Shown here one piece after another: positions 5,921 to 64,000 of a stretch of 64,000 nucleotides of DNA. The stretch comes from a bacterium. GTDB taxonomy: Bacteria > UBA8248. The number at the start of each line of letters is the position of its first letter. The stretch's first letter is position 1. The DNA lies in assembly GCA_965207065.1 (NCBI GenBank), contig OZ242260.1, forward strand, positions 4,412,867 through 4,476,866. The letters run 5' to 3'. The position numbers were made by a program, and so were the translations under genes. The notes below the pieces were generated by a model that was given only the letters and a program-made list of their open reading frames with translations, was not told where the DNA came from and made no database searches.

Positions 5921-5977
5921 TACCGCCCCGATTCGTATGTAGCGCGCTAATTGATCGAGTAGTATCGTTTTTCCGAC

Positions 5978-6140
5978 CTGTCGCAGGTGGGCTTTCTGAG
6001 TGAAAGCCCGGGAAGCCGGTGAGAATCCGGCGCGGACCCGCCACTGTGACCGGGGACGAAAGCGGCCATTACCACTGGCGGATGCCGCCGGGAAGGGGCC
6101 GTGAGTAGGATGATCCGGAAGCCAGGAGACCGACCTGCGG
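5978..6140 (+). ncRNA. Cobalamin riboswitch (copy 1)
   Basis: CAGGTG...GGGAAGCCGGTGAGAATCCGGCGCGGACCCGCCACTGTG...CCACTGG...GGGAAGG...AGCCAGGAGACCGACCTG (B12 box); lies upstream of btuB. Confidence 0.9.
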
Positions 6141-6274
6141 CAACCTTTTGACCCGTCACGTCCTCGCGGAACGGGAGGTGGGTGGTATCTTGCGCATCAT
6201 CACACCCCAAGACGAGAGAATCATCGCACGCGCGGGCATTGCGCACACGCGGCGATAAAGTTTCGCCATAAGCG

Positions 6275-6496: not shown

Positions 6497-6527
6497 AAGC
6501 GCGGCGGACGCATCCGCCGCTGAAACA

Positions 6528-6668
6528 GCCGTCAGGTGTTCGGGAATCCGGTGTAAGACCGGAGCTGCCCAGCAGCTGTGAGCGACGCGCCTTTCATGCA
6601 ACCACTGGGATTTTCCCGGGAAGGAATGAAAGGCGGCCATCGGCGCGAGCCAGAAGACCGGCCTGCCG
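6528..6668 (+). ncRNA. Cobalamin riboswitch (copy 2)
   Basis: CAGGTG-TTC-GGGAATCCGGTGTAAGACCGGAGCTGCCCAGCAGCTGTG...CCACTGGGA...GGGAAGG...AGCCAGAAGACCGGCCTG, ~70 bp upstream of the btuB start. Confidence 0.85.
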
Positions 6669-6736
6669 GCATCTCCCATGCGACCCCACGAGGGGTCCGT
6701 TTCGAGCGCTTGGGCCGCTCAAGGAGGCGTCACATC

Positions 6737-15488: not shown

Positions 15489-15679
15489 GGCGGCTCCACA
15501 TAAGAGGTATATAAAGAGGTGGCGTCCGCGCATTCTAGTACACCGCACGCCCGATGCCGAGTACGGCCAAGCGTTGCGGGCGAGGCCGCTTCGGGGGAGA
15601 ATCGGCGGGACACGCACCGGGGAGTGAGGGTTCACGGCGAGGGCATCACTCGCCCCGCTCTCCCTTTGCATGAAAAGCA

Positions 15680-15710
15680 ACCCCCCCTACCCCCCCTTGT
15701 CAGGGGGGTA
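15680..15710. repeat. CCCCCCTAC-CCCCCCTTGTCAGGGGGG REP-like palindrome
   Basis: Same unit as at ~6340, ~8875, ~8960, ~18361, ~18422 and ~18541. Confidence 0.75.
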
Positions 15711-15791
15711 AGAAAAACAAAGCCCTCCCGGGAAGGGAGGGTTCATGTTCAGCAGGGTTAGGGGTGAACCCAAACCAGGGGAACGACGTTC

Positions 15792-16753: not shown

Positions 16754-16843
16754 ATCGTCCCGTCACACGCGAAACATACAATTCACTCCCCACTTGAGGG
16801 GTCGGGCATCCGATGAGGGTTGAAAAATCACTCCCCCCTTGAG

Positions 16844-17013
16844 GGGGCTGTTGAAAAAGCCCTTATGAACGAGGATTCGACTCGACCGGGAAGGGACGAT
16901 TATTGTAGGGGCCGCATATTATGCGGCCCGCGTGCCCCTAACGGGGAGGGTCGCATAATATGCGACCCCTACAAACGAACAAATTTTCCCTCTCCAACTT
17001 TTTCAACAACCCC
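16844..17013. mobile_element. MITE-like element, same TIR family, carrying an inverted GTAG-REP pair
   Basis: GGGGCTGTTGAAAAA...TTTTTCAACAACCCC with 5-bp direct repeat TTGAG on both sides. Confidence 0.8.
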
Positions 17014-17125
17014 TTGAGGGTCGGTCTCCCTCGGGGAAGACCGACAACGAGACAAGGGCGAAGCCCGCAGGCGAGTTGGTGGGAGGAGCCTTTTCCGTGG
17101 CATGTCCCCCCGCTCGCGTTTCAAC

Positions 17126-18154
17126 TCACACCGCCTCGTACGCCCGGTGCACGGCGCGGCTGGCCCCGTTCCAGCCGGGCATCACCGCGCCGAGCGGCCC
17201 GTTACCGCCCGCGACGATGAGGTGCAGGTCTTCGGGCTCGTTCACGACGCGGATGAAGAAATCATCGTTATCTCTCTCCACCGGATATTCCCACCGCCCG
17301 TTCGGCTTGTCTTCGCGCCAGGGGCCGCCGCGCTTGAGCTCGCCCACCGTGCGGCCCGCGTTTTCCGTGACGTAAGCGTGCACGTCCGCCCGCGAGAAGC
17401 CCGCCCGCGCGCACAGCCTCGCGTGTTCGGGGGAGAGGACGAGCACGGTGTCCGACCGCACCCAGATGGGCCACGAACCCATCGCCGCCATGTTGTCCAT
17501 GTGGGAGACGAGCAGGCGCTTCGGGTCCCGGTCCACGTCGTTGAAGATGATGTGGGGGTTCTCCACCATCACGGCGGTGATGACGTCCTCCTCCGCGCCG
17601 TAGCCCCGCGATACGGCGAGCGACTCCCAGGGGCTCTCCTCCTCGTTCTCCGCCACGCAGAACGTGAACCGCGACGGCTGGCTGTAGATGCTCATGCACG
17701 CGACGCGCGCGACCCCGCCGCCCAGGTTGAGCAGCAGGAGCCGCACCGCGCGGCCGATGGTGGCGTTCGCCCGGAAGCCGGGGCCGAAGCAGCCCTGCCC
17801 GCCCGTGACGCCGATTCTTTTCGCGTAGGGGCCGTTCAGGATAAGCAGCGGCGCCACGCTGTGCATCGTCGCCTGCACCCCGCTCAGGTTGAGCGGCTCC
17901 TCCACGATGAGTTCGAGCGCGGCGATCACGACGGGGAGATACTCGGGCCGACAGCCGGCCATCACCGCGTGGGCCGCGACGTCGCGCACCGTGGCCGTCT
18001 CGTCGAGCGGCGGGACGGGGGTCACGACCTCATCGGGCGACCGGGACGTTCCCGCGAGCATGCGCTCTATGCGTTCTTCCGTGGGCGTGACAACGGGCAG
18101 GCCGTCCGACCAGGGTTTCTCCAGAAAGAATTCGAATTCATCCATCTCGTTCAT
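17126..18154 (-). CDS. Conserved hypothetical protein (WSDGLPVV.PT family)
   Basis: Motifs WSDGLPVVTPT, AVMAGCRPEYLPVV, GPGFRANATIGRA, ENEEESPW; function not assignable. Confidence 0.75.
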   Translation of the reverse strand: MNEMDEFEFFLEKPWSDGLPVVTPTEERIERMLAGTSRSPDEVVTPVPPLDETATVRDVAAHAVMAGCRPEYLPVVIAALELIVEEPLNLSGVQATMHSVAPLLILNGPYAKRIGVTGGQGCFGPGFRANATIGRAVRLLLLNLGGGVARVACMSIYSQPSRFTFCVAENEEESPWESLAVSRGYGAEEDVITAVMVENPHIIFNDVDRDPKRLLVSHMDNMAAMGSWPIWVRSDTVLVLSPEHARLCARAGFSRADVHAYVTENAGRTVGELKRGGPWREDKPNGRWEYPVERDNDDFFIRVVNEPEDLHLIVAGGNGPLGAVMPGWNGASRAVHRAYEAV

Positions 18155-18238
18155 GGGAGGCTCTCCGGTGAGTGTTTTCGGTGGTTTGCGTTTTCCCGAG
18201 CCTATCACGCCGGGCGTTGCCGATCATGGGGGGTGCGT

Positions 18239-18702
18239 GTAGGGACAGGCACAGGGGCCGGACAGGCACAGGGGCCTGTCCCTACGGGATCCTTGTGGAG
18301 AATCACACACGCCCGTCATTCCGGTCTCGGACAGGTCGCGACCTGTCCCTACAAAATCAACCCCCCCTACCCCCCTTGACAGGGGGGCATGAAAAGGCAA
18401 CCCCCGCGACAGGAAAAGCAACCCCCCCTACCCCCCCTTGACAGGGGGGCATGAAAAAACAAAGCCCCTGATAAAAAACCTTCCCGGCAGGGGGGTATGA
18501 AAAAACAAAGCTCCCCCGACAGGGGGAATAATTGAAAGACCCCCCTGACAAGGGGGGGTAGGGGGGGTTGCTTCTGACGAGGAGAGTCGGGGGTTCGTGC
18601 GGAAGCGGCCTTCCCGCAAAAGGCAATGCCCCCGGCAAGGGGAGTTGCGGATCGGACGCGACCGATGCGGAGACCCCGGACAGGTCACGACCTGTCCGCT
18701 AC
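18239..18702. repeat. Mixed REP cluster (GTAG-type and CCCCCCTTGACAGGGGGG-type)
   Basis: At least 6 palindromic units; last REP cluster seen in the window. Confidence 0.8.
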
Positions 18703-18750
18703 GCACCCCCCTCACCTGCCGGTTTCTCCTTTTTCCGCCGAAAAGATTCC

Positions 18751-18909
18751 TTGACAATTATGAAAATTATCGCGCAATATGGATGCGTGCGACACAATCC
18801 GCGGGGTGGAGAGGCTTCGGCTGCTCGCCGTCCACGAGGCGACCTTCCGACGGAAGGTCGAAATAGGCGAGAAATCACCTTGACAAAACGGAAAAGGCTG
18901 TAGCAATAT
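18751..18909 (+). promoter_or_regulatory. Two tandem sigma70-like promoters TTGACA-N18-CAATAT
   Basis: TTGACA 18751 with CAATAT 18775, and TTGACA 18880 with CAATAT 18904. The same twin arrangement is on the minus strand at 48943 and 48816. Confidence 0.65.
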
Positions 18910-18915
18910 CAAGTC

Positions 18916-19041
18916 TGCGACACGTTCCATGAGGTGCAGTCGACTTCGGGCTGCCCGCTGAATACAAGACGACCCTCTTCCGGAGGGCCGGAATAGGCGG
19001 GAACCCACCTCAAGTACCTATACCTCGTGGATTGTGTCGCA
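18916..19041 (+). ncRNA. Candidate structured RNA (unit B), unknown family
   Basis: 20-bp closing stem 18916-18935/19022-19041 with two G-U pairs, internal hairpins, starting 7 nt after a -10 box. Confidence 0.5.
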
Positions 19042-19199
19042 ACCAGCCCGGACTGCGACGCATCCTTATCGTCGCACCCCCCGCGCTGTTTGAATCGATC
19101 ACAAGCGGCATGAAAACTGCCCGTTTATATACGCGAGATGAAGGAGGCTCATCGGAGGAAGCTGTAACTGCGTTGATACACCTTTTTTGAATCTAAGTT

Positions 19200-19320
19200 T
19201 GCGACACGTTTCACGAGGCGCGGTCATCTTCAGGATGACGGCAAAAAGGCGGCCTTCACCCTTGATGGCCGAAGGGATAATGGGAACCCACCTGAACCAC
19301 CAACCCTCCTGAAACGTGTC
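19200..19320 (+). ncRNA. Candidate structured RNA (unit C), paralog of unit B
   Basis: Closing stem GACACGTTTCACGAGG/CCTCCTGAAACGTGTC; shares GGGAACCCACCT with unit B. Confidence 0.45.
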
Positions 19321-19632
19321 CCGGGAAATCCGGAACGCGGGCCGCAAGGCAGGCGCTCTCCGGTTGACGAGACAACATGAACCCAGGATTGAAGGCCCAA
19401 AAATATGAGGAAAGGAGGTTAATCGGAGAAAGCCGGCATATACACGTAAAATTTCTCCCCTCGCCAGTCACCCCACCGAACGCGCTCTGATACGATAAAC
19501 AACTGATTTAATTCACCTTTAATTCAATCGGCATATATTCCTGCGCTTGCAACCTCGTCAGGCGTGTGCTCCAATACGCTCCTGTTTGATGCCGCGTGTT
19601 TGCGATTTGATTACGGTTTCAGGGGAGGATCC

Positions 19633-20814
19633 ATGCCGAAAAGAAGCGGGAGCAGGCTCACGAAGCGCGCCGTCGACGCGCTCTGTGTCGAGGGGAAGGA
19701 CGCGGTCTTCTGGGACAGGGAACTGGCCGGTTTCGGGGTGCGCGTCTACCCCACGGGGCGGAAGGTCTACGTGGTGCAATCGAGGGGGCCGCGCGGGCCG
19801 AAGCGCAAGGCGCTGGGCCGTCACGGGGATATATCGTGCGACGAGGCGCGCAAGCTTGCCGCCGCCCTCATCGACCGCATCAAGCGGGGGGAGAACCCCG
19901 CACCCGGTGCGAAACTCACCGTGGCGGGGCTGGCGGAACGCTTCATGCGCGTCCACGTGTCGGCGCACTGCAAACCGCTCACCGCCGTTTCCTACGGCAG
20001 CACGCTGGAGAAGCACGTCCTGCCGTCATTTGGCGAGATGGGGGTCGGCGAGGTCACGGGAGGCGACGTCATGGCCATGCACCACCGCATGCGTGAGACG
20101 CCCAAGGCGGCCGACATAGCGGTCGACGTGCTCTCGAGAATGTATGTGCTGGCCGAGGCGTGGGAACTCATACCGCCCGGGAGCAATCCTTGCTCGGCAG
20201 TGCGCCGCTACCGGAGGCGCCCCCGCGAGCGGTTCCTGACGCCCGAGGAGTTCCGCCGCCTGGGCCGCGCGCTGCGCGAAGCGGAGGCGGAGGGCTCGGC
20301 CCGGCCGTCCACGATTGCGGCGCTCCGCCTCGTGATGCTGACCGGGTGCAGGAAGTGCGAGATTCTGGAACTCAACTGGGACGACGTGGATCTCACGGCG
20401 GGGGAGCTCAGGCTCAGGGACGCGAAGTCGGGGCCGCGCATGGTCCACCTGACGGCGCCCGCGCTCGTGGTGCTCGGTCAAGTCCCGCGCACGCCGGGGG
20501 AGGCCCGCGTGTTCCCCGGGCGGGAAGGGAGGAGCCACAAGCCCTACTTCGACCTGGTCTGGCGGCGGGTGCGGGCTCGCGCGGGACTCGAAGACGTAAG
20601 GGTCCACGACCTGAGACACTCCTACGCCAGCCGGGCGCTCGCGCTGGGCGAGGGGCTGCCCATGATAGCGAAGCTGCTCGGACACGCGGGGATATCGACG
20701 ACGGCGCGCTACGCGCACCTGATGCGCGAGGCGGAGAAGACGGCGGCCGCCCGGGTTGGGGAGAGTATCGGGGTCCATCTGGAGCCTCGGGCCACGGAAG
20801 CCCGGGCGGAATAA
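19633..20814 (+). CDS. Tyrosine recombinase/integrase with N-terminal arm-DNA-binding domain
   Basis: WDRELAGFGVRVYPTGRK N-domain; LTGCR, HDLRHSYAS, LLGH, TTARY catalytic motifs. Confidence 0.92.
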   Translation: MPKRSGSRLTKRAVDALCVEGKDAVFWDRELAGFGVRVYPTGRKVYVVQSRGPRGPKRKALGRHGDISCDEARKLAAALIDRIKRGENPAPGAKLTVAGLAERFMRVHVSAHCKPLTAVSYGSTLEKHVLPSFGEMGVGEVTGGDVMAMHHRMRETPKAADIAVDVLSRMYVLAEAWELIPPGSNPCSAVRRYRRRPRERFLTPEEFRRLGRALREAEAEGSARPSTIAALRLVMLTGCRKCEILELNWDDVDLTAGELRLRDAKSGPRMVHLTAPALVVLGQVPRTPGEARVFPGREGRSHKPYFDLVWRRVRARAGLEDVRVHDLRHSYASRALALGEGLPMIAKLLGHAGISTTARYAHLMREAEKTAAARVGESIGVHLEPRATEARAE

Positions 20815-20830
20815 CGGGGAGGCGCCGGAG

Positions 20831-22036
20831 ATGGCGAAGCTGCAGGGCGGGACGCTCTCGAACCGCATGGTGGAGAAGCTTGCCGCCGAAAAAGACTCGG
20901 TTTTCTGGGATCGCGACCTCACGGGCTTCGGCGTGCGTGTCTACCCCACGGGGAGCAAGGTCTACGTCGCCCAGGTCCGGGGGCCGAAGGGTCCCAGGCG
21001 CGTGACGGTGGGCCGGCACGGTGTGATCAACGCGGATGAGGCGAGGAAGCGCGCGGCCTCGGTCATCGCGCGGGTGAAGGCGGGCGAGGAAGTAGCGTCC
21101 GGACCGGCGAAGCCCGCGGGAGGCCCCACGGTGGCCGATCTCGCGCGGCGCTACATGGAAGAGCACGTGGCGGTCCGGTGCAAGCCGAGCACCGGGGACC
21201 TCGCCCGCGCGGTGGTATGCAAGCACATCCTGCCGGCCCTGGGCAGGGCGCCGCTTGCGGCGCTCGAGCGCGCGCAGGTGGCGGAGTTGCACCAGCGGCT
21301 GGGCAGGACGCCCTACATGGCGAACATGGTGGTCCGCACCCTGAAGCTGATGTACAGGCTGGGCGAGGGCTGGGGCATGGTCCCCAAGGGATGCAACCCG
21401 TGCCGCGCCATCGTGAAGTATCCCGACCGCAAGCGCGAACGCTTCCTGACCGATAAGGAGTACACCCGCCTGGGGCGCGTCCTGGAGGAGGCCCGAAACA
21501 GGCGCGGTTCGGCGGGAGCGGTGGCGGCCATCCGCCTTTTGATGCTGACCGGGTGCCGGAAGAATGAGATACTCTCGCTCCGCTGGGAGAACGTCTCGCT
21601 CGAGGCGCGTGAATTCAGGCTGCCCGGCGCCAAGACGGGCGCGCGGGTGGTGTCCTTATCGCCGCCGGCGCTCAAGCTCCTCTCCGCCCTGCCCCGGGCG
21701 CCCGGGAGCCCGTGGGTGTTTCCCGCCAGGAACCCCGGCGAGCACGTCCGCTCCGTCCACCATGTCTGGAAGAGCGTCTGCTCGCGCGCCGGTATCGAGA
21801 ACGTGCGGGTCCACGACCTCAGGCACTCCTACGCCTCGCGCGCCCTGGCCCTGGGCGAGAGTCTCACGATGATCGGAAAACTCCTGGGGCACAGCCAGAT
21901 CAAGACCACGGCGCGCTACGCGCACCTCGCGCGCGAGTCGGTGCGCGAGTCCGCCGAGCGCGTCGCAACCAGTATTGCCGACGACGTATTGGAGGAGGAC
22001 TGGAGGCGGGCTCTCGGTTCAGAACACGTCCCGTAG
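20831..22036 (+). CDS. Second tyrosine recombinase/integrase, paralog of the upstream gene
   Basis: WDRDLTGFGVRVYPTGSK; LTGCR, HDLRHSYAS, LLGH, TTARY. Confidence 0.92.
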   Translation: MAKLQGGTLSNRMVEKLAAEKDSVFWDRDLTGFGVRVYPTGSKVYVAQVRGPKGPRRVTVGRHGVINADEARKRAASVIARVKAGEEVASGPAKPAGGPTVADLARRYMEEHVAVRCKPSTGDLARAVVCKHILPALGRAPLAALERAQVAELHQRLGRTPYMANMVVRTLKLMYRLGEGWGMVPKGCNPCRAIVKYPDRKRERFLTDKEYTRLGRVLEEARNRRGSAGAVAAIRLLMLTGCRKNEILSLRWENVSLEAREFRLPGAKTGARVVSLSPPALKLLSALPRAPGSPWVFPARNPGEHVRSVHHVWKSVCSRAGIENVRVHDLRHSYASRALALGESLTMIGKLLGHSQIKTTARYAHLARESVRESAERVATSIADDVLEEDWRRALGSEHVP

Positions 22037-22176
22037 CGGCGCGAGCCGCGACAGGCCGTGTAGTCCGTGCGCCGGCGCAGGTCTCATCGTAACGGCGCGC
22101 AACCATATGCGCTTGCGCTTTATCCGGGCCTTGCTCTCTGCCGACGGCCGGCGACGAACAGTGCCCCGCGTCGGCG

Positions 22177-22503
22177 TCAATCGCTGGCGTCGTGCCCGGC
22201 GATGCCCGCGAGCTCGACCGGAGGGCGGTCGGGGAAGCGGGCGACGAGCGAGAGGCTTCCGCCCATCGCCTCGACCGTCCGGCGCAGCGTGGACAGCAGC
22301 AGGTCGCTGCGCTGCTCGAGCCGAGAAACCGCGTCCTGGCCGATGCCGAGCTCGCGCGCAACGCTCACCTGGGTTAGCCTGCGGGCCTCGCGCAACTCGC
22401 GCAGCGTCATCTCCTCGGCGATCAGTTCCGCCGCCCGCTCCTCGATCCTGCGCCGCCGCTCGGGGGCGAGACTTGCGATTACCTCTTCCACGTCGAGCGC
22501 CAT
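22177..22503 (-). CDS. XRE/HTH antitoxin (HigA-like)
   Basis: TLRELREARRLTQVSVARELGIGQDAVSRLEQRSDLLLSTL. Confidence 0.85.
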   Translation of the reverse strand: MALDVEEVIASLAPERRRRIEERAAELIAEEMTLRELREARRLTQVSVARELGIGQDAVSRLEQRSDLLLSTLRRTVEAMGGSLSLVARFPDRPPVELAGIAGHDASD

Positions 22504-22821
22504 TACGATTCTCCTCTTCTTTCCTCGGCGAGCCGGGCGAGGTGCCGGTCGTATCGTTCGTCGGCCTTGCGGGTAAGCGCGCGGTAGAACCGCCGCCGGC
22601 TCCTGCCCGTCTTCTCGCCCGCAACCAGCACAACGGCCTGACGTGCGGGATTGAACGCGAAGGCGACCCGCCATGCTCCGTCCACTGCGCTGAACCGCAT
22701 CTCCTTCATGTTCGCATGCCGCGATCCGTGCAGCGTATCCACCTGCGGCCTTCCCAGTTGCGGCCCGAACTGCTCGAGCAAGCGACCGATTGCGTAGACC
22801 TCATCCTGAACCTGGCCGGGC
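22503..22821 (-). pseudogene. RelE/ParE (Gp49-like) toxin, 5'-truncated
   Basis: Matches the copy at 31099-31464 only up to 22821; the N-terminal ~18 codons are replaced by unrelated sequence. Confidence 0.75.
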
Positions 22822-46510: not shown

Positions 46511-48334
46511 TTACTCAGCCTTCCATGTGCCGAAGGAACCGAGGATTCTGATCGGGTCACCGGAATGCCCCGGCGCTTCCGCGGTGAAAGTACCTGCCGC
46601 GGTCGTGGGGTACTGGGTTTCAGCCGCCTTGCCGGTCGCGCCGCTGGGGCCATAGAACTGGCCGCCCCACTCGCCTGACATCGTCCGGCCCACCAAGGTG
46701 CCCGAAACGTCGCCGGTGAAAGGACCAGTGAAGGTGGCACCAGTAGCGTTCTGGTCAATACCACCATTAGCAGCATCGGAATTCGTATCGATTATTGGCG
46801 CCCTCTTTAGCGTCAGCGAGCCGTCGACGTCCATGCCGCCGGCCCTGATGCCGGTGACGGTGCCGGTGACGGCACCCAAGAGGAGCTCGTCATTGTCGGT
46901 AGCAGCAGAAGCTGATAGCGGAGTGGAATCAGCGCCTACGGATCCGCCGAAGTTGGCCGTCAGGCTGACGTCCGCGTCGAAGTATTCGACCATGCCGCCC
47001 GCCGAATACAGGCCGTTCGCGACGCCGTTATACGTCGCGTTGCCCGTGAGGACGGCCTTGACATCGAACTGGTCACTGCCGTAAGCGAATGCGCCTGCCT
47101 GGGCGTCTCTATTGGTAGCTGTCGGGCCGGAACTTCTGGTGGAACCTTGCATCCAGAAACCCCAGGCCAGATAGTCGCCGTCCTGCCTGGTGATTCCGGT
47201 GCTCTCATGGAATGCGTAGCCCGTCTGCGCTACGATCTTTCCACTCGCGTCAACACTGATTGAACAAGGAGTGGTAGTGGGATCAGTACATCGAAATTGT
47301 CCTTCAACCGGAGGGTCATTGTCTGTGGGATCCGAGTTGAACGTTGCCGCGAAATTGCTTCCGTCCCCTGCGACCTCCCCCCCTACGATTACACTTGTTC
47401 CAACGCTGATAGTATTATCGGTAGATGCTGCTGCAGCATAGTTTTGGGTCGCCGCCTGAATGTCCGTGCTGATTACTAGATGACTTCTCAGCATATCAGT
47501 GGCGGTGTCACCCGGCAACACCAGACCCTGGGCTTCCCAGTCTCCTTTGGTCTGGAAACGTGAAGGAGTTTCACCCTCCAGCAATCGAGTTGGAGAACCA
47601 GAAGCACCAATGCCAACTGCAAATGTTGAGCCGTCCTTTTTATGCTCGACTACTGCCGTGTCCGTTATTGCAGCTACCACAAGCGCAGTAGCAGTCGAAT
47701 TGCTCATTCCGCTCTGGCCAGTCAAGCCAGCAGCAGCAGTAGCTTCAACACCAGCGGCAGCCGCCATTGCGTTTCCCACGTTCTGCGCATTTGAGACAGA
47801 CTTGGGCGGATCCTTGCCTTCCAACTCGGCATTTCTGATGTCTTGAGTGTTGAGTTCCTTGTTCGCCAGCCCTGTGATTCCCAGGCTGCGTTCGCCGGCC
47901 GCTTCCATCGCCTTGTCGCGGGCCGTCTCGGCCGCCGTCCGGTATTCCATGGCCATTGCGGAAGTCGTGGCCATCGCCGCCGAGTCGGAAGCTGTCTTGG
48001 CCATCGCCGCGTACGAGTACGCGTTCGAGGCCGCCACGGGGTCCTTCGCGCCGCCTACGGCCGCCATCGCCGCCGAAGCCGCCTGCATGGCCGCGCTCTG
48101 CGCGCCGCTCAGGGCCATCTCTTCGGCCAAGTCTGCGGCGGATGTGCACGAACCGTCCGCGTTATACCGGCCGCCGTCATCCTCGCACATTTCCTGCTGG
48201 GTCGGCATGGCGGACGTCTCTTCTTCAACGGCGGCCGTTCCGCCGCCGCCGCCGCAACCGGCCAGCGTCAGTGCGAACACCGCCGTCAGGGCATAAGCGT
48301 AAAGCTTGCTTATCGATTTCTCTTTGAACATCAT
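46511..48334 (-). CDS. Surface lipoprotein with C-terminal TbpB-like beta-barrel (paralog)
   Basis: Lipobox LAG-C followed by GGGGG, Ala-rich stalk, YLAWGFW, ATYNGVANGLY...YFDADVSLTANF...GEWGGQFYG...GSFG. Confidence 0.78.
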   Translation of the reverse strand: MMFKEKSISKLYAYALTAVFALTLAGCGGGGGTAAVEEETSAMPTQQEMCEDDGGRYNADGSCTSAADLAEEMALSGAQSAAMQAASAAMAAVGGAKDPVAASNAYSYAAMAKTASDSAAMATTSAMAMEYRTAAETARDKAMEAAGERSLGITGLANKELNTQDIRNAELEGKDPPKSVSNAQNVGNAMAAAAGVEATAAAGLTGQSGMSNSTATALVVAAITDTAVVEHKKDGSTFAVGIGASGSPTRLLEGETPSRFQTKGDWEAQGLVLPGDTATDMLRSHLVISTDIQAATQNYAAAASTDNTISVGTSVIVGGEVAGDGSNFAATFNSDPTDNDPPVEGQFRCTDPTTTPCSISVDASGKIVAQTGYAFHESTGITRQDGDYLAWGFWMQGSTRSSGPTATNRDAQAGAFAYGSDQFDVKAVLTGNATYNGVANGLYSAGGMVEYFDADVSLTANFGGSVGADSTPLSASAATDNDELLLGAVTGTVTGIRAGGMDVDGSLTLKRAPIIDTNSDAANGGIDQNATGATFTGPFTGDVSGTLVGRTMSGEWGGQFYGPSGATGKAAETQYPTTAAGTFTAEAPGHSGDPIRILGSFGTWKAE

Positions 48335-48950
48335 TTAGTGAGTCCTCCTGAGTACATAGAAAAAGAGATTTTCTGCGAATTTCCGGCTTTCTCTAAACCT
48401 CTAACATCCTCCTCTCCGTTGAATTCCATTATCTCTAACTCTGGGTTGTCTTCCTGAATTAATTACCGGAGGACGGTTACTACCGGGTTCGCCTTCCAGA
48501 ATGTAATGGTACACGATTCGTGATTCTAAAAAAGTTGGTCAGCCGATTAAGCTTCCTGTTACGTTGAACCCGTCTCCTCTTCCGGGCGACGACCACTCCG
48601 TTCGAGAACCCTTCCAACGGGTCGATGCAACCTCAATACAGACATTCGGGGTCGGCTGCAACGTTATCCCCGAGGAGCCAATTCCCGATGTAGTACCCGC
48701 CTGTTCCAAACCTCATTAGCTGAGTATATCGTTCCCGGCGAGCAACCCCGCGTCAATCGCGCCTCCTGGATTCTATTGCTACACCGATATTGCTACAGCT
48801 TTTTCCGTTTTGTCAAGGTGATTTTCTCGCTAAATTCGGCCCTGGGTGAGAAGACCGCAATCGGCGGGCGGGCGAAACATAAAATCATCACCTTATTCAC
48901 TATCGTTTATATAAATATGAAGTAAACTCCGGTCAATTGTCAAGTGATTC
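48335..48950 (-). promoter_or_regulatory. Long leader of the lipoprotein pair: twin promoters plus structured unit
   Basis: Homologous to 18741-19445; 48786-48830 matches 18867-18910 with one mismatch and one indel; 48329-48390 is identical to 63861-63922. Confidence 0.7.
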
Positions 48951-49409
48951 CCTTTGCCCGGCGGGCTATTGCCGAATCCTGCGTGCCGACCCTGTCTCAT
49001 CAAACGTTTGCCCCTTGTCTTCTTCCGGCCTGCCATCGTTCCTGTGTCATTCGCTCCAGGGTAGCTCGGGCGACCGGGGATACCCTCGGGTTTCTCCCCG
49101 CCCCGGAACGCAATCCCCCGGGCCCGCAGGCGTATGCCCGATGAGCGGAGCGCCGGAATAGCGGCGATTCGAGCGTTCCGAACGGCATTTTTCCCGCGAG
49201 TTGCGTCGCCGCGCATACGGGGTGATGACGGAAAAACCCTCGGGGAGGCGAGCCGGCGATGGTGGGCCGGACCGGCCCGGACGCGTGGGTCCCGAAGCGC
49301 CGAACCACAAAACCGGGAAGTTCCGCCAGCCCCGTTGACGGCATGATGATGAAGGCCGTTTTCCGGATCGAGTCCTCGACTCATCCACGGGCTCGGAGTT
49401 TCTTTCTTA

Positions 49410-49620
49410 TCGGCGGGCGGGGTGAGAATGTCGTACTCCGGACCCGTAGCGCGGCCGAGCTTCCGGTCAAGCGTAATCAGCGGACAACCCGGCGCCACGT
49501 ACCAGGCGTCGCAGCAGGCCAGGTTACTCCGCAATGCCCATATCCGTTCGGCAAACGGCATGAAAGGAAACAACTCCAGGTGCATTCGCAGCAGAATGAT
49601 TTCGTCCGGGGAGAGCAACT
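49410..49620 (-). pseudogene. VapC/PIN toxin remnant
   Basis: PFAERIWALRSNL..CDAWYVA..PLITLDRKL; internally deleted, no intact start. Confidence 0.6.
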
Positions 49621-50341
49621 CCCGCTACGAGTTCCGTCATATCAGGCGCATGGGGGGTTGCGTCGTTGCGATATCGGCGTCGAGTCGAAGCGTATTATAT
49701 ATAGAGGAGGCGAACCCGACCGCGCCAGGGTCTTCCCTGGAGTCTGGTTGAAATTCATGAATCTTGCAGATTTTCAGGAAGACGGGCAAGGAATTTCATC
49801 ACGGATATGGGTATGATGCGCATCTTATTCGCCATGGCGCCGGGCAATGGCCGGATATGCGTATTCTCCTGACGACTCTCTCGCCGGTAAGGAACACAAT
49901 ACCGGGACTCCGATTGCGCAAGCAGCGCAGTCGGGAAATGAACGGAATGCCCGTTCAATATCCTTGCCGTTTCTCCCGCTCGGTGAATATCGATTCTTCT
50001 ATGGGGAATGGGAACCATTACCACCAGGCGGGGGGAGAAGCCGAACGTATCCAACCGGAGCGTCGCAACTCATGGCCGGGGAAACGCCTTCATCCCGAAA
50101 AAAGCCGCCCGCGACTTCATGTCAGGCCAACCCGATGCATCGGCCGATACGGTGCGGAAGAAGCGGTGCGAGACCCGCAGCGTGGCGGAGGGAGAAACAT
50201 TACCTCGGATCAGGTTCGCTCAAAACGGGATTCGACAAGTTGCGCCGAAAGAGTTGCGCAGACACGCATTCCTGCTAGAATCGCTCATTCCCCCGAGAAA
50301 TACCCCGCCCTGGATGACCCGTAAAAGAGACGGGAGAATCG

Positions 50342-50686
50342 ATGATGGCGACCGGATATTCCGGCGAGACCTGGAACACGAAGGAATTCTTCGAGCGCGC
50401 CGGCGCGGCGGATACTCTCCGCCGCCTGCAGGACGGAGACGATGTCAACGCGCGGGATGAACGAGGATGGACGCCTCTTCACAGGGCGGCGGCGTTCGGC
50501 AGGACGCCCGGGGTCGTGACCGCGCTGGTCGAAGCCGGCGCCGCCCCGAACGCCCGGGACCGCAAAGGGCGCACGCCCCTGCACGTGGCGGCGTGTTTCG
50601 GCAAGGCCGTCCCTGCCGTCGCGGAGGCCCTGCTTGCCGCCGGCGCCGACCCGGCGGCAAAGGACGAGGGCGATAAAACGCCCTGA
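50342..50686 (+). CDS. Ankyrin repeat protein
   Basis: NARDERGWTPLHRAA, NARDRKGRTPLHVAA, KDEGDKTP; possibly truncated. Confidence 0.85.
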   Translation: MMATGYSGETWNTKEFFERAGAADTLRRLQDGDDVNARDERGWTPLHRAAAFGRTPGVVTALVEAGAAPNARDRKGRTPLHVAACFGKAVPAVAEALLAAGADPAAKDEGDKTP

Positions 50687-51119
50687 GATCACGTCAGGAT
50701 GGATTCTCCGCTCTGGGGAACGGAGGTCTTCCGGCGCTTAAAGGACGGACGGCACCCATAGCCCACAGAAATTGCGCGCGCGGCGTCACGCGAGGGGTTA
50801 CTGTCCTTTTCCGCCGCCCTCACCGGTTCCGTCGCCTGAATCGTGGCCGGGGCAATCAAGGGGTAGACGCCGCGCATTCTACTTGTCTTGCCGAATGCGG
50901 CATCGGGCACGCTCCCCCTTTCATTTTTTTCGTTTTCTTGCCAATTACGTGGTGAAAAGCTATAAACGCGCCTTTTCGAATGCAAAATATAATGAATGCG
51001 AGGATAATACCTGTATCAAGAATCAGGATTAATTGTTGCGATGCATTACGCGTCAATCCTCTGGAAAGACGACCCGGGATTGGAACAACCACACACGAAC
51101 GGGACAGGCGAGGGGCCGG

Positions 51120-51950
51120 ATGAGAAACATGTTCCGGAGTTTCATGCGATTACTTGAGGCTCGGCGCGAAGCCGGGGAGCCTGCTCCGGCTCCGGATAGC
51201 GCGGATACCGGGGAGGAGACGCTCGATGGGCGTGAACTGACGCCCGAGGCTCAAAACGCCCGGTTCCTGAGCGAAATCACCAACCGCTCCATTCATCTGA
51301 GCGAACGCGCCGTCGAACAGGCGCAGGCGGGGGACATCGAGGGCGCCATAGAGACGGCGCGGGGCATCGGAAGCTCTCTTTTCCACGCCTCCGCCCTGCG
51401 GGAAATCGCCATCGCCCAGGCGGGGGCAGGACAGATCAGCGAAGCCGTCGAGACGATTCGCCGCATCGACGACCCCGACGATCGAATGGTGGCGCTCAAG
51501 CACTTCTCCGCCGTTCAGAGGGGCCCCGCCGCTGCCATCGCCTCCCATACGCTGAACGCCGCCCTGGAGGCGATCGAGGAGATCCGCGACGAAAAGAGCG
51601 TTTCCGAGCAAGCGTGGAAAAACGTCATGTCCCTGGCCGGGGCGGGGGATTTCACCACCGCCGTTCAGGCAGCCCGCGAAATCGGCGACCCTTCCTGGCG
51701 CTCCTGGGCCTTGCAGGAAATCGCCACGGGCCAGGCGGGTGCGGGAGATTTCCCCGCCGCTCTCCATTCCGCAGGCGGCATCGGCAAGCCGCTTTACCGC
51801 TCATGGGCGTACCGGGACATCGCCGTGGCGCAGGCCGAAGCCGGGCAAATCGACGCCGCCATGGACACCGCGCGCCGCGTGGAAGACACAGAAGATAAAG
51901 AGCAGGCGTTCGCGGCCATCGAAAAACAAAAGGAACAACCCGGCGGGTAG
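51120..51950 (+). CDS. Alpha-solenoid (TPR-like) repeat protein
   Basis: ~33-aa repeats of the form AL.EIA..QA.AG.I..A..TAR.I.D. Confidence 0.75.
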   Translation: MRNMFRSFMRLLEARREAGEPAPAPDSADTGEETLDGRELTPEAQNARFLSEITNRSIHLSERAVEQAQAGDIEGAIETARGIGSSLFHASALREIAIAQAGAGQISEAVETIRRIDDPDDRMVALKHFSAVQRGPAAAIASHTLNAALEAIEEIRDEKSVSEQAWKNVMSLAGAGDFTTAVQAAREIGDPSWRSWALQEIATGQAGAGDFPAALHSAGGIGKPLYRSWAYRDIAVAQAEAGQIDAAMDTARRVEDTEDKEQAFAAIEKQKEQPGG

Positions 51951-52909
51951 CGCGTCTGGCCGCATCACGCAAGAACACGTCCGGCGCTCAACTTCCAGAA
52001 AAATCGCCACAGACGTCGTACGGACTCAGGTCCTTCACGACGGGCTCGGGGAAAACCCCTGCATACTCGAAACCGGCCGCTGCCGTCATTCCGGTGAATA
52101 CTCTCGATCGGGGGGGAGGTCAACAGCCCCTGACGCAGGGGTTTCCGAACAAAGACGCGCCGGGATGGTCCGTTTTGCGTCACGGACGCGCGACGGTAGA
52201 ATCATGAGCCGTCCCGGCCCTGTGCGAGATGCGGGCCGTGCTCGCCATGGCGCGCCGGAGCTTCGAAGTGAAACCGCCTCGCCGCGGAAAAGCGGAACCC
52301 GGGCGGCGCGCCACACACAGGACACTCTCATATGTGCATGTCGGTTGAGCATACCCGGATACAGAATGCCGATACCGGCTCCTTAACGATTACGCCATCT
52401 TCCGGGGCGAATTCGGGAAACTGCCGCGCGATGGTGCACGGAGAGTTACTCGCCAAGCCGTGGAAGCAGGGTCGTGGGACTTTCCGGCAGAGCCCGCGGG
52501 TGAGCATCAGAGCCGCCAAATGGCTCGAATCATCGCTTGCTGCTTCCGACCCCTGACAACCCGAAAATCAAGCTGCGGATTGCTAATCCGTCAACCGCCA
52601 TTGCAGATCCTGATTTTTTGATCCAGGAATCCCTTGTCAGGAAAAGCACTCAATCGCGCATAAGGGACTAAGCACGAATACCGTGCATTTACCATCGTGC
52701 GTGACTGTCAATTTCCTGCAAGAAGAGTCGAGGACGCTCTTGAAGCGCTATGGCCATTGCCCCTCCACTACCTCGACGGGCCAAGAATGTCGCCACGGCA
52801 AGAGTTGAAGAGGAATGAATCCTGTCAGCGAATGGCCCCGTAGTATCCGATAAACGAACCAGGTGCTCCGCGTGGCTGGGCACGCATATTTTCAGTTCAT
52901 GATGACGAA

Positions 52910-53740
52910 CTATTGGCAAAATGTGCCCGTCCAATGCACGGACTCAGGAAGTTTCGGGAGTGCATTTTTTCTCGCACACGCGCTCTTAAGTTGTTTCGGT
53001 TTTAGTCCGAGAGCCGTACTCAGATCTGCGTTACTCAGATTCGTTCGGATAAAAAACGCATTATCTAGCTGTGAGTTCGAAAAAACTACACTTCTATCAA
53101 TCGTGGTGTCACTAAATACCACAGAAGTAAGGTCGGAATTAGTGAAATCCACACTCTTGATATTGATAGCATGACCGAAGGTCGCGCCCTTTAGCTTTGT
53201 GTCACTAAAATCTGAGCTGCTGATTCTTGCCTTGTTAAATTTTGCGCCTCTTAGATCTGCATCGCGAAATATTACATTGATGAATTGCGCATCATTGAAG
53301 TTCGCATTACGCAGGCTCGCTCCACCTAAATCCAAATCCTTCAAGATCATATCGCTAAGATCAATACGGTTCAAGGGAAACTTATCACGTGAAAGAGCTT
53401 CAATAATTGCATGAATAGGTGCGTCGCGTTTACCTAATGGGAGGGAGCGCAACTGGCCAATCTGGGTCAAGAGCATTGCGCCACGCACGGCACGGTCCAT
53501 ACTTCTCTCTTCGTATTCGGAGAACACACCAAATACGGTCGCTATAAGAGCCACTACCGCAATGAGCTCGCACGATATTCGAAATAGCGCTACATTGTGA
53601 AATAGGTAGAAGAATACGGAAGCCCAGTGGTCTGGTCGTGCGAAAATCCTTAGAATAATACTCTTCTCACTCCTCCATCTGTGTTGATCGAATACTGGAC
53701 GGGTAGCGGCTGTTGATTTACATTTCGGTTTTGGCTCCAT
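52910..53740 (-). CDS. Pentapeptide repeat protein with N-terminal TM segment (low GC)
   Basis: ASLRNANFNDAQF, ADLRGAKF, TNLSNADLS. Confidence 0.85.
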   Translation of the reverse strand: MEPKPKCKSTAATRPVFDQHRWRSEKSIILRIFARPDHWASVFFYLFHNVALFRISCELIAVVALIATVFGVFSEYEERSMDRAVRGAMLLTQIGQLRSLPLGKRDAPIHAIIEALSRDKFPLNRIDLSDMILKDLDLGGASLRNANFNDAQFINVIFRDADLRGAKFNKARISSSDFSDTKLKGATFGHAINIKSVDFTNSDLTSVVFSDTTIDRSVVFSNSQLDNAFFIRTNLSNADLSTALGLKPKQLKSACARKNALPKLPESVHWTGTFCQ

Positions 53741-54242
53741 ACGAAACTCCTTATCTGTCAGTATCCGAGTCGCCTAGCGCCTAGCCAATAGTTAACTTGT
53801 TCTTTTTTTTCCAAGTAGCTAGGATTTTGCTTCCACGCTTTGTCTAATTGCAAGTGCGTCAGTAGCTTGACTTAGTGGTAGTTACTGCTGGCAATTTCAA
53901 TAGTACTCTTTGCGCCGTTGGATTCCACTCGATAGATTTTTCTCTTATGTGAAAATCAAACGTCCATGATAAAATCGGGCAAGTAGATCCGCAATTCGAG
54001 GATTGCGCTGTGTCTTTGAAATAAGCAATAATCGTAAATAAGAAATTGGTTAGCGCGATGTTTGGCCATCCCCAACTCCTATCTTAGGTGTGGGTGACAG
54101 CATTGCCTTCCATTGCACCACATCTTCAAAGAATCCTAAGTTAGTTATACGAATCTTCGTTTTGCTGACACATATCACTACCTCATAGCCTGATCTCATA
54201 GATAAGAGGAAAGAGCCATGAGCCAAACAGAAACTATTAAAC

Positions 54243-63816: not shown

Positions 63817-64000
63817 AGATATAAGAATTCAACGCTATCCTAAAAGAATCCTCCATCTAAAAAGCCGGAAATTCGCAGAAAATCTCTTTTTCTATGTACT
63901 CAGGAGGACTCACTAAATGATGCGGAACTCAGGGTAGCGGACGCCATGGCCGCGAATGCCACGGCCCAGGCGGCCGACAACACGGCGCATGCGGAAGACG
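63817..64000 (+). pseudogene. Third lipoprotein-type 5' UTR and start, fused out of frame to an Ala-rich stalk remnant
   Basis: 63861-63922 is identical to the reverse complement of 48329-48390; the ATG frame stops after 6 codons; another frame reads DAELRVADAMAANATAQAADNTAHAED. Confidence 0.7.

Follow-up and report, generated by a model that had tools for sequence, protein, structure and literature searches.

The described RNAs closest to the one reported here are riboswitches whose pseudoknot is closed by the 3' tail. They are compared below with an array of three related RNA units, A, B and C, located at positions 18741–19445 of a 64,000-nucleotide (nt) stretch of bacterial DNA (the window; contig OZ242260.1 of assembly GCA_965207065.1, GTDB lineage UBA8248). 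Like such riboswitches, the units have an aptamer-like fold in a 5' leader, with covarying helices around near-invariant joints. The 3' strand of the pseudoknot may instead pair downstream, tandem copies stand in one leader, and short leader transcripts seem to accumulate. Unlike riboswitches, the units carry promoters of their own, one of them inside the leader, the genes behind them have the envelope and not one pathway in common, and the family has no sequence or structure match in Rfam 15.

Other known systems share some of these traits. The put RNA of phage HK022 and the eps-associated RNA (EAR) of Bacillus cause processive antitermination, in which the polymerase reads through terminators. 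They too are structured and cis-acting, and the transcripts concerned come from polysaccharide operons or from operons acquired horizontally; EAR has a pseudoknot, and put stands directly after its promoter. The units described here, in contrast, match neither in Rfam, and many precede single genes at a distance of 4–60 nt. The 5' hairpin of ompA and the STAB-SD element of cryIIIA resemble the array in having a terminal stem at +1 of abundant envelope-protein messenger RNAs (mRNAs) and AAGGAGG motifs that do not initiate translation, but a stabiliser would not need a fold nearly as elaborate and conserved as the one found here. On the scale of operons, the vsa/vsp expression sites of Mycoplasma offer a parallel. 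Paralogous lipoprotein operons of the present genome share an identical ribosome-binding site (RBS) and signal-peptide start and are joined at a short core, AAAGCCGG, to alternative upstream arms, with tyrosine recombinase genes at the same core. Unlike in Mycoplasma, what is seen here is insertion of integrase-bearing elements and static alternative arms, and no switching has been observed.

The array and the fold of its units

A, B and C are true members of one RNA family, whose fold is ~130 nt long; of the three, A is a half unit and C has diverged. The fold is made up of a long closing stem (P1), an inner helix (P2, CCCGCU/GGCGGG), a variable hairpin (P3) and a pseudoknot, which pairs CGGGCUG directly 5' of P2 with CAGCCCG in the tail directly 3' of P1. 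The asymmetric internal loop that P2 and P3 surround is strongly conserved, and the joints GAAUACAAGACG, GGAAUA and AACCCAC hardly vary among units. Direct reading of 18400–19800 places the common start TGCGACAC, already seen in the earlier note, at the head of all three units (18788 in A, 18916 in B and 19200 in C).

Unit B (18916–19051, plus strand) is a full unit, matching the covariance model of the family at 118.2 bits (E = 1.3e-26). Its P1 joins 18916–18936 with 19022–19042, P2 joins 18954–18959 with 18996–19001, and the P3 hairpin occupies approximately 18970–18990. The pseudoknot is formed by a 5' strand at 18946–18953 and a 3' strand, CAGCCCGG, in the tail at 19044–19051; the conserved joints are GAAUACAAGACG, GGAAUA and AACCCACC. 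Folding gives a closing stem of 9 + 11 = 20 pairs, the length read earlier from the letters, with a z-score of −5.52, and 0 of 200 shuffled sequences fold as well.

Unit A (18788–18879, plus strand) starts with UGCGACACAAUCC, which resembles the P1 5' strand, and continues with a short closing stem (GGUGG/UCACC), P2 (CUCGCC/GGCGAG) and a P3 hairpin. It has neither the P1 3' strand nor the tail, its 3' end abuts the −35 box of the next promoter, and its match to the model (18798–18892, 38.5 bits) covers model positions 12–108 only. Alone it folds unexceptionally (z −0.85; 42 of 200 shuffles as good). The change of the inner helix from CTCGCC/GGCGAG in A to CCCGCT/GGCGGG in B, which had been noticed in the DNA, is that of P2, and the shared GAAnnCACCT is present. 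Unit C (19199–19336, plus strand) had been given a 16-bp stem of different sequence; it proves to have 11 + 4 = 15 pairs that follow the same P1 consensus with a few changes (z −4.44; 0 of 200 shuffles as good). C also contains a hairpin (GGUCAUC..GAUGAC) and GGGAACCCACC, its P2 and P3 are altered, and it scores 23.9 bits (E = 1.8e-5, filters off); a C-type match in another genome reaches 32.1 bits. A C-type unit is kept at the same place in 9 loci, with double-sided changes in 6 of its 28 predicted pairs.

A long-range pairing between the 5' strand of A and the 3' strand of B gives 19 of 19 pairs by hand. It is not claimed, since the minus-strand copy of the pair (A2/B2, below) lacks the complementarity; the minimum free energy (MFE) structure of 18788–19062 also keeps the P1 of B itself.

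Further copies for alignment were gathered from the same genome and its relatives by BLAST and with a 34-nt promoter pattern. In alignment A4, which holds 18 non-redundant hand-picked units with a mean column identity of 70%, 90.0% of cells are paired, compared to 82.3% in shuffles, and 0 of 500 shuffles reach any of the measures. Double-sided changes occur in 15 of its 34 pairs, and in slid controls only 29–40% of cells are paired. A covariance model (R1), built from the nested helices only and leaving the pseudoknot out, gathered 62 matches, 48 of them distinct. For the nested helices of these 48 sequences, statistics that lean on the model used to gather them, 94.9% of cells are paired and 25 of 33 pairs show double-sided changes, values reached by 0 of 500 shuffles. 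The pseudoknot, which is absent from the model, is 95.5% paired in the same sequences, with double-sided changes in 4 of its 8 pairs; one of the pairs is UA in 28 units, CG in 10 and UG in 8.

An RNA fold is not the only source of paired sequence. The units might be features of DNA, such as a miniature transposable element bounded by terminal inverted repeats, palindromic operators or sites at which the neighbouring integrases recombine. In favour of this, the island around the locus is rich in recombination, the leader receives integrase elements, and P1 resembles terminal inverted repeats. P1, however, shows covariation, with double-sided changes in 11 of 14 pairs, and contains many G-U pairs, which can form on the plus strand alone; with filters off, the model gives unit B 118.2 bits on the plus strand and 14.0 bits on the minus strand. 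In place of the near-identical copies, terminal inverted repeats and target-site duplications of a miniature element, we find diverged copies, covarying arms, a strand-specific signal and a promoter kept at a fixed distance. Insertion takes place in a leader element termed block 2 (below), 100–270 nt downstream of the last unit and not in a unit, and ARAGORN finds 0 transfer RNA (tRNA) or transfer-messenger RNA (tmRNA) genes in the window, which speaks against an integration target of the tRNA/tmRNA type. A DNA-level origin is therefore largely refuted and very improbable. The inverted operator sites that the earlier note had held against its own reading do not account for the G-U pairs, the strand difference or the compensatory changes.

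Both A and B stand behind predicted promoters on the plus strand. Promoter P_A (18751–18780) consists of TTGACA at 18751–18756, an 18-nt spacer and CAATAT at 18775–18780; P_B (18880–18909) has TTGACA at 18880–18885, the same spacer length and CAATAT at 18904–18909. These are the boxes of the earlier note, which had put both units 7–8 nt further on; the distances are 7 nt for A and 6 nt for B. A generic promoter scan listed neither P_A nor P_B, since CAATAT shares only 3 of its 6 positions with TATAAT, and the promoter call rests on conservation across the family. The P_A layout is kept in 9 other loci, and the 34-nt stretch at P_B occurs 5 times in the genome, compared to 0 times for the reversed control. 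Unit C has no clear TTGACA promoter of its own. Family-wide, TTGACA (≤1 mismatch; 39 exact), a 17/18-nt spacer and nAnnnT lie within 12 nt of the first base in 42 of 48 units. Each unit marks the predicted start of a transcription unit, with P1 at the predicted 5' end. With its promoter directly upstream and an open reading frame (ORF) downstream, the unit is a conserved, covarying structured domain in a 5' untranslated leader.

The array is also found in RNA libraries. Assembled contigs from the RNA libraries of two studies cover 18801–19045 (word depth 87.9, 0 differences), 18802–19024 and 18801–19054, and a 469-nt contig spans A2, its promoter and B2. We take these contigs as a sign that A–B is present in RNA and that transcripts cross the internal promoter from A into B. 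The contigs over C (19075–19420) have a depth of 9.3, versus 87.9 over A–B (X15), in a type of evidence that carries no ends, strand or level and in which depth is flat per contig and cannot rank the parts. Contig starts at 18801/18802 in three runs are not claimed as a 5' end, as they may be assembly breaks at a variable base. Within 18200–20400, two intervals have no cover by RNA contigs (18496–18791 and 19458–19605) and are not used as evidence. Covariation across homologs, the lack of a match in Rfam and the RNA-library contigs over A–B support the functional RNA, either a cis-acting leader or a small RNA (sRNA), that the earlier note had suspected.

The absence of a known family, suspected from the sequence, agrees with the database searches. 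At the gathering score, Rfam 15 (4227 models) finds only two cobalamin riboswitches in the whole window, between 5968 and 6680. These are tandem aptamers at 5968–6152 and 6517–6680 (plus strand) with 121.4 and 86.9 bits. At E ≤ 10, the 18300–19700 interval yields nine weak matches, all of them in 18373–18583 and none inside 18741–19445; the microRNA-like ones are G/C-run palindromic repeats. Clusters of such G-run/C-run palindromes (GGGGGG..CCCCCC around TGTCAAG-like loops) occupy 18350–18640, and also ~15650–15725 and ~16800–17110, and they recur at very many places in the genome, where they cause spurious microRNA-like and terminator-like matches. At E ≤ 1, eight loci with diverse units give seven matches, none of which overlaps a unit in any of the eight. 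Rfam 15 shows no match to 6S, c-di-GMP-I/II, c-di-AMP, ZTP, EAR or Y RNA-like families.

Two further contexts were considered and rejected. For Y RNA/RtcB, the upstream ORF of 425 residues (17102–18379) has no Pfam match and there is no Rfam match to Y RNA. For retron msr/msd, bridge RNA and omega RNA, the genes adjoining the units include neither a reverse transcriptase nor IS110/IS605, and Rfam gives no match. A literature search at the level of listings and the beginnings of abstracts, partly swamped by papers on 'microRNA sponges', turned up no description of this RNA. Judged by this search and Rfam 15, the family is previously undescribed.

The covariance model finds 14 matches in this 4.48-Mb genome. 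The collection represents the whole phylum by 51 genomes, 24 of which contain members of the family. Within the same genus, 20 of the 22 other genomes are positive with 1–16 matches each, and single matches occur in three other genera. An exact IUPAC pattern searched over 185,579 species (one genome each) retrieves 35 stretches, all in metagenome-assembled genomes of this kind, titled 'Nitrospinota bacterium' or 'uncultured Nitrospinaceae' (10) or simply 'bacterium' (25). In JGI metagenomes the exact pattern occurs in eight stretches, and the model confirms all eight. The sequencing runs that contain the locus are labelled sponge metagenome. As far as searched, the family is confined to one small phylum of uncultured bacteria.

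The composite leader and its insertion site

The leaders were aligned from P_A to the gene in the window and in nine loci of other genomes. The order of parts is constant in all ten: P_A, half unit A, P_B, full unit B, hairpins, block 1, a C-type unit, a hairpin and block 2. Half unit A ends in ..AAAUCACC, abutting the −35 box of P_B, and the fusion of A, promoter and B is kept in other genomes. Block 1 (AAGGAGGCTCATCGGAGGAAGCTG, 19141–19164, plus strand) is a Shine-Dalgarno-like leader element kept in the ten-locus alignment, yet it has no start codon at the right distance. The hairpin between the C-type unit and block 2 is CCGGACGGCG..CUCUCCGG. Block 2 (AAAGGAGGTTAATCGGAGAAAGCCGG, 19411–19436, plus strand) ends in ..GGAGAAAGCCGG, and the alignment of filled and empty sites at its junction identifies the last bases (19429–19436) as the recombination core AAAGCCGG. 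The AAGGAGG..ATCGGAG.AAGC blocks, reported earlier as a simple repeat, are indeed repeated (19141–19164 and 19411–19436), but they are better described as conserved leader elements, the second of which is also an insertion hot spot for integrase elements.

The stretches downstream of block 2 explain why the array had seemed an orphan. Seven of the nine other loci run into AGGAGGACTCACTAAATG and continue with AAATTCACGGAAAATCCCTTTTTCTATG..CAGGAGGACTCACTAAATG and a lipoprotein gene. In the window, the leader sequence breaks off after 19436 (junction 19436|19437), and CATATACACG.. follows instead, then two tandem tyrosine integrase genes (19633–20814 and 20756–22036), both with Pfam Phage_integrase and Arm-DNA-bind_3 domains. 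These form the left end of an inserted element (19437–22036, plus strand). The array looks like an orphan because this integrase-pair element sits right after AAAGCCGG and separates the leader from its gene; by alignment, the array is the conserved composite leader of a surface-lipoprotein operon in other genomes. The integrase pair is P4-like, its two genes are ~52% identical to each other, and the left end of the element falls within 19437–22772.

The same insertion is found elsewhere. Copies of the integrase pair with 97–98.5% identity lie behind two other leaders in the genome, at g13816(-17162) and g70121(-72745), and another genome carries the same insertion (L080). Ten integrase pairs with 60–100% identity are present in the genome, three of them exactly behind the leader core AAAGCCGG. 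Exact AAAGCCGGAAATTC heads seven lipoprotein leaders in the genome, and AAAGCCGGCATATACACG (≤1 mismatch) heads three integrase elements. Metagenome contig L118 is an empty site. Metagenome contig L117 (~11580) carries a near-identical A–B–C leader (368 of 382 bases) in which a different integrase element follows AAGGAGGTT; its insertion point lies 16 nt upstream of the junction in the window. An RNA contig (X17, 19214–19420) has a loose end at 19420, where it leaves the window sequence at a junction of the L117 type; the promoters of the leader may drive the inserted element.

The minus strand of the window carries a second composite leader (A2–promoter–B2; 48644–48943, 74.1 bits) at the place where the earlier note had seen a diverged A+B pair. 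Its −35 boxes are at 48943–48938 and 48816–48811; B2 spans 48781–48644 and folds with a z-score of −2.81 (3 of 200 shuffles as good). Near-identical copies of this leader are found at g13428, g69733 and g96948. The minus-strand copy is an empty site with its target intact (46511–48390, minus strand). Core AAAGCCGGAAATTC at 48390–48377 is followed by an RBS (AGGAGG) and a gene (48334–46511) that is predicted from its translation to encode a surface lipoprotein of 607 residues with the lipobox LAGCGGGGG. This lipoprotein has no Pfam match; relatives downstream of other units match TbpB_B_D or FHBP_C.

A further AAAGCCGGAAATTC core at 63861–63874 (plus strand) stands behind an AT-rich arm and is followed by a lipoprotein RBS and a start codon with a stop after six codons. 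It may be the far junction of the element that starts at 19437, together with a remnant of the target gene of the array. The AAAGCCGG cores at 19429–19436 and 63861–63868 bound a 44.4-kb stretch that holds the integrase pair, a betaine-type ABC transporter, a porin, a DUF4143 ATPase, a TrwC relaxase and the second leader–lipoprotein operon; this stretch may be an integrative mobilisable island. Window positions 48383–54000 and G000 g13826–8209 form a 5.6-kb inverted duplication, 100% identical and ending exactly at AAAGCCGG. One copy leads to the lipoprotein operon and the other to the integrase pair; the duplication spans contig ends, where the assembly is uncertain.

Two-gene operons for surface lipoproteins form a set of seven paralogues in the genome, with an RBS and a signal peptide that are nearly identical throughout; members lie at G000 g43748, g61677, g108391 and g121784, outside the window, and at 46511–48334 within it. 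In four of the seven, an AT-rich upstream arm, joined at the same core, replaces the RNA leader. The layout recalls expression-site systems for variable surface proteins.

Downstream genes and possible modes of action

The first sizeable same-strand ORF was taken for 47 units and could be called in 40. Twenty-nine of the 40 units precede lipoproteins, secreted proteins or sugar transferases: 14 lipoproteins with an L(A/V)GCGGG lipobox (12 by regular expression and two by eye), six proteins with signal peptides, seven Bac_transf sugar transferases and two Glyco_transf_25 proteins. Two units are followed by integrase insertions, one by SNase, and eight are unclear. Among 19 representatives, 10 have a Pfam match and 9 have none. 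Bac_transf accounts for three proteins (all three tested), and Glyco_transf_25, CsgG, OMP_b-brl and SNase for one each; TbpB_B_D is found once above the cut-off and twice below it, one of the latter proteins also matching FHBP_C. Many units end 4–60 nt ahead of the start codon. The common theme of the downstream genes is the cell envelope, which is coherent but not one pathway. A strict linkage of leader and lipoprotein operon is rejected, as only 2–3 of the seven operons in this genome carry the leader.

The tail of the unit offers a clue to function. In MFE structures, at least five of the eight tail bases pair downstream in 18 of 28 non-redundant units, and in 12 of the 28 no more than 5 of 100 downstream shuffles are as good. 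For unit B, folded as its tail plus 52 nt, seven of eight tail bases pair downstream and 0 of 100 shuffles do as well. The predicted alternative hairpin (19044–19088, plus strand) uses the 3' strand of the pseudoknot, pairing CAGC.CGG with CCG.GCUG around GCGACGC...GUCGC. One compensatory change is seen in this B-type hairpin (CGGC/GCCG in L077 versus CAGC/GCUG), and in L060 an 8-bp stem is followed by UUUUUU. Such alternative pairing appears to resemble the riboswitch-type switch between a sensor domain and an alternative structure.

This switch-like anatomy of the tail leads us to favour, with somewhat better than even confidence, a cis-acting regulatory leader with a metabolite or a protein as the putative effector. 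The unit would act in cis as the sensor or binding domain. With the pseudoknot formed, the tail would be held in the fold; otherwise it would pair with the next 20–50 nt downstream, and the choice would set the amount of transcript or of translation at the gene. At the array itself, the integrase-pair element after AAAGCCGG has displaced the operon, and the leader now reads into that element.

Several points weigh against a cis-acting regulatory leader. Ten of the 28 units have no downstream hairpin, a single compensatory change supports it in the B type, and few of the hairpins look like terminators or clearly cover the RBS. Tandem units with their own promoters and the half unit A are unusual anatomy for a riboswitch, and the gene set is broader than that of a typical metabolite riboswitch. 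The leader is found on only 2–3 of the seven lipoprotein operons in this genome, and the best-conserved paralogue, g1626198, has no nearby gene here. RNA libraries can hold DNA, and the higher depth over A–B could mean a stable separate sRNA. The ligand, the protein partner and the regulatory effect are hypothetical.

The g1626198-type paralogue is 91–100% identical across 17 genomes, and in an alignment of 12 species it is nearly invariant between drifting flanks. At two orthologous loci, a lipoprotein gene lies 174–196 nt downstream. Downstream of the unit, at L010 ~1690–1900 (G000 g1626390–1626600), and in orthologues lies an invariant GGATTGTATGG, a copy of the P1 3' strand, which could compete for the P1 5' strand. 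A conserved palindrome, TGACCnnTTGGTCA, is also found downstream of the g1626198-type paralogue.

This conserved copy, without an adjacent gene in this genome, speaks for a stand-alone, stable sRNA acting in trans, for example by titrating an RNA-binding protein, with the position upstream of genes incidental or derived from a 5' untranslated region. Such an sRNA would agree with a promoter for each unit, with 5' and 3' ends closed through P1, with the multi-copy nature of the family, as in protein-titrating RNAs, and with a contig depth about ten times greater over A–B than over C, a comparison subject to the flat per-contig depth noted above. We nevertheless consider it unlikely: 29 of 40 units precede same-strand genes for envelope or secreted proteins, and most units have no clear terminator behind them.

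The position of the unit at approximately +1 of the transcript would suit a processive antitermination RNA, in which the 5' unit binds the transcribing RNA polymerase and lets it read through terminators in long leaders or in envelope and polysaccharide operons. Units head Bac_transf/Glyco_transf_25 and surface-protein operons, often with leaders of 300–470 nt, and RNA-library transcripts continue from the leader into an inserted element (X17). NusG-family genes give a further hint, confounded by phylogeny: each of the 23 genomes of the RNA-bearing genus has one such gene, and 8 of the 51 genomes, all in other genera, have two to four, only one of the eight having the RNA. A role of the unit as a recruitment site for a NusG paralogue was dropped, as there is exactly one NusG-family gene per genome in the genus; the complementary distribution is a weak lead. 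Since Rfam gives no match to EAR or another family, and the many units 4–60 nt from the start codons of single genes leave little for antitermination to act on, this mode of action is also improbable.

A passive role was also considered, by analogy with known stabilisers. P1 would shield abundant envelope mRNAs from decay that depends on the 5' end, and the AAGGAGG blocks would be Shine-Dalgarno-like stabilisers. P1 starts at the predicted 5' end, and two perfect AAGGAGG motifs without start codons are kept in the leader. A terminal hairpin would suffice for this purpose, however, and the near-invariant internal loop, the AACCCAC joint and the covarying pseudoknot indicate a specific three-dimensional fold, which makes mere stabilisation quite improbable.

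Significance of the family

The units constitute a new RNA family within a known general kind, structured 5' leaders. Its unusual features are the number of copies (up to 16 per genome), and a leader of three units that has a promoter inside it and ends in a recombination hot spot. It is a transcribed, pseudoknotted RNA family with good support and without a counterpart in Rfam, from a lineage known only through metagenomes. As a defined candidate, whether for a new riboswitch or for an RNA that binds the polymerase, it is open to in vitro tests that need no culture of the organism. The covariance model is a practical marker for finding predicted transcription starts of envelope genes, and block 2 illustrates how mobile elements pick a strongly transcribed leader to insert into.

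A bolder and rather doubtful picture would make the unit a new ligand- or polymerase-binding leader RNA that serves as the master cis-control of a cell-surface regulon in a sponge-symbiont phylum. The three-unit leader, with three interchangeable P1 5' strands, two 3' strands and an internal promoter, would work as a strand-exchange relay, and AAAGCCGG would let tyrosine-recombinase elements swap the operon or element that is driven. If true, this would amount to RNA-gated surface variation, with a regulon of surface lipoproteins, outer-membrane proteins and polysaccharide starters. The family marks predicted transcript starts for surface proteins and polysaccharides, which in a sponge symbiont are likely to be molecules of the host interface.

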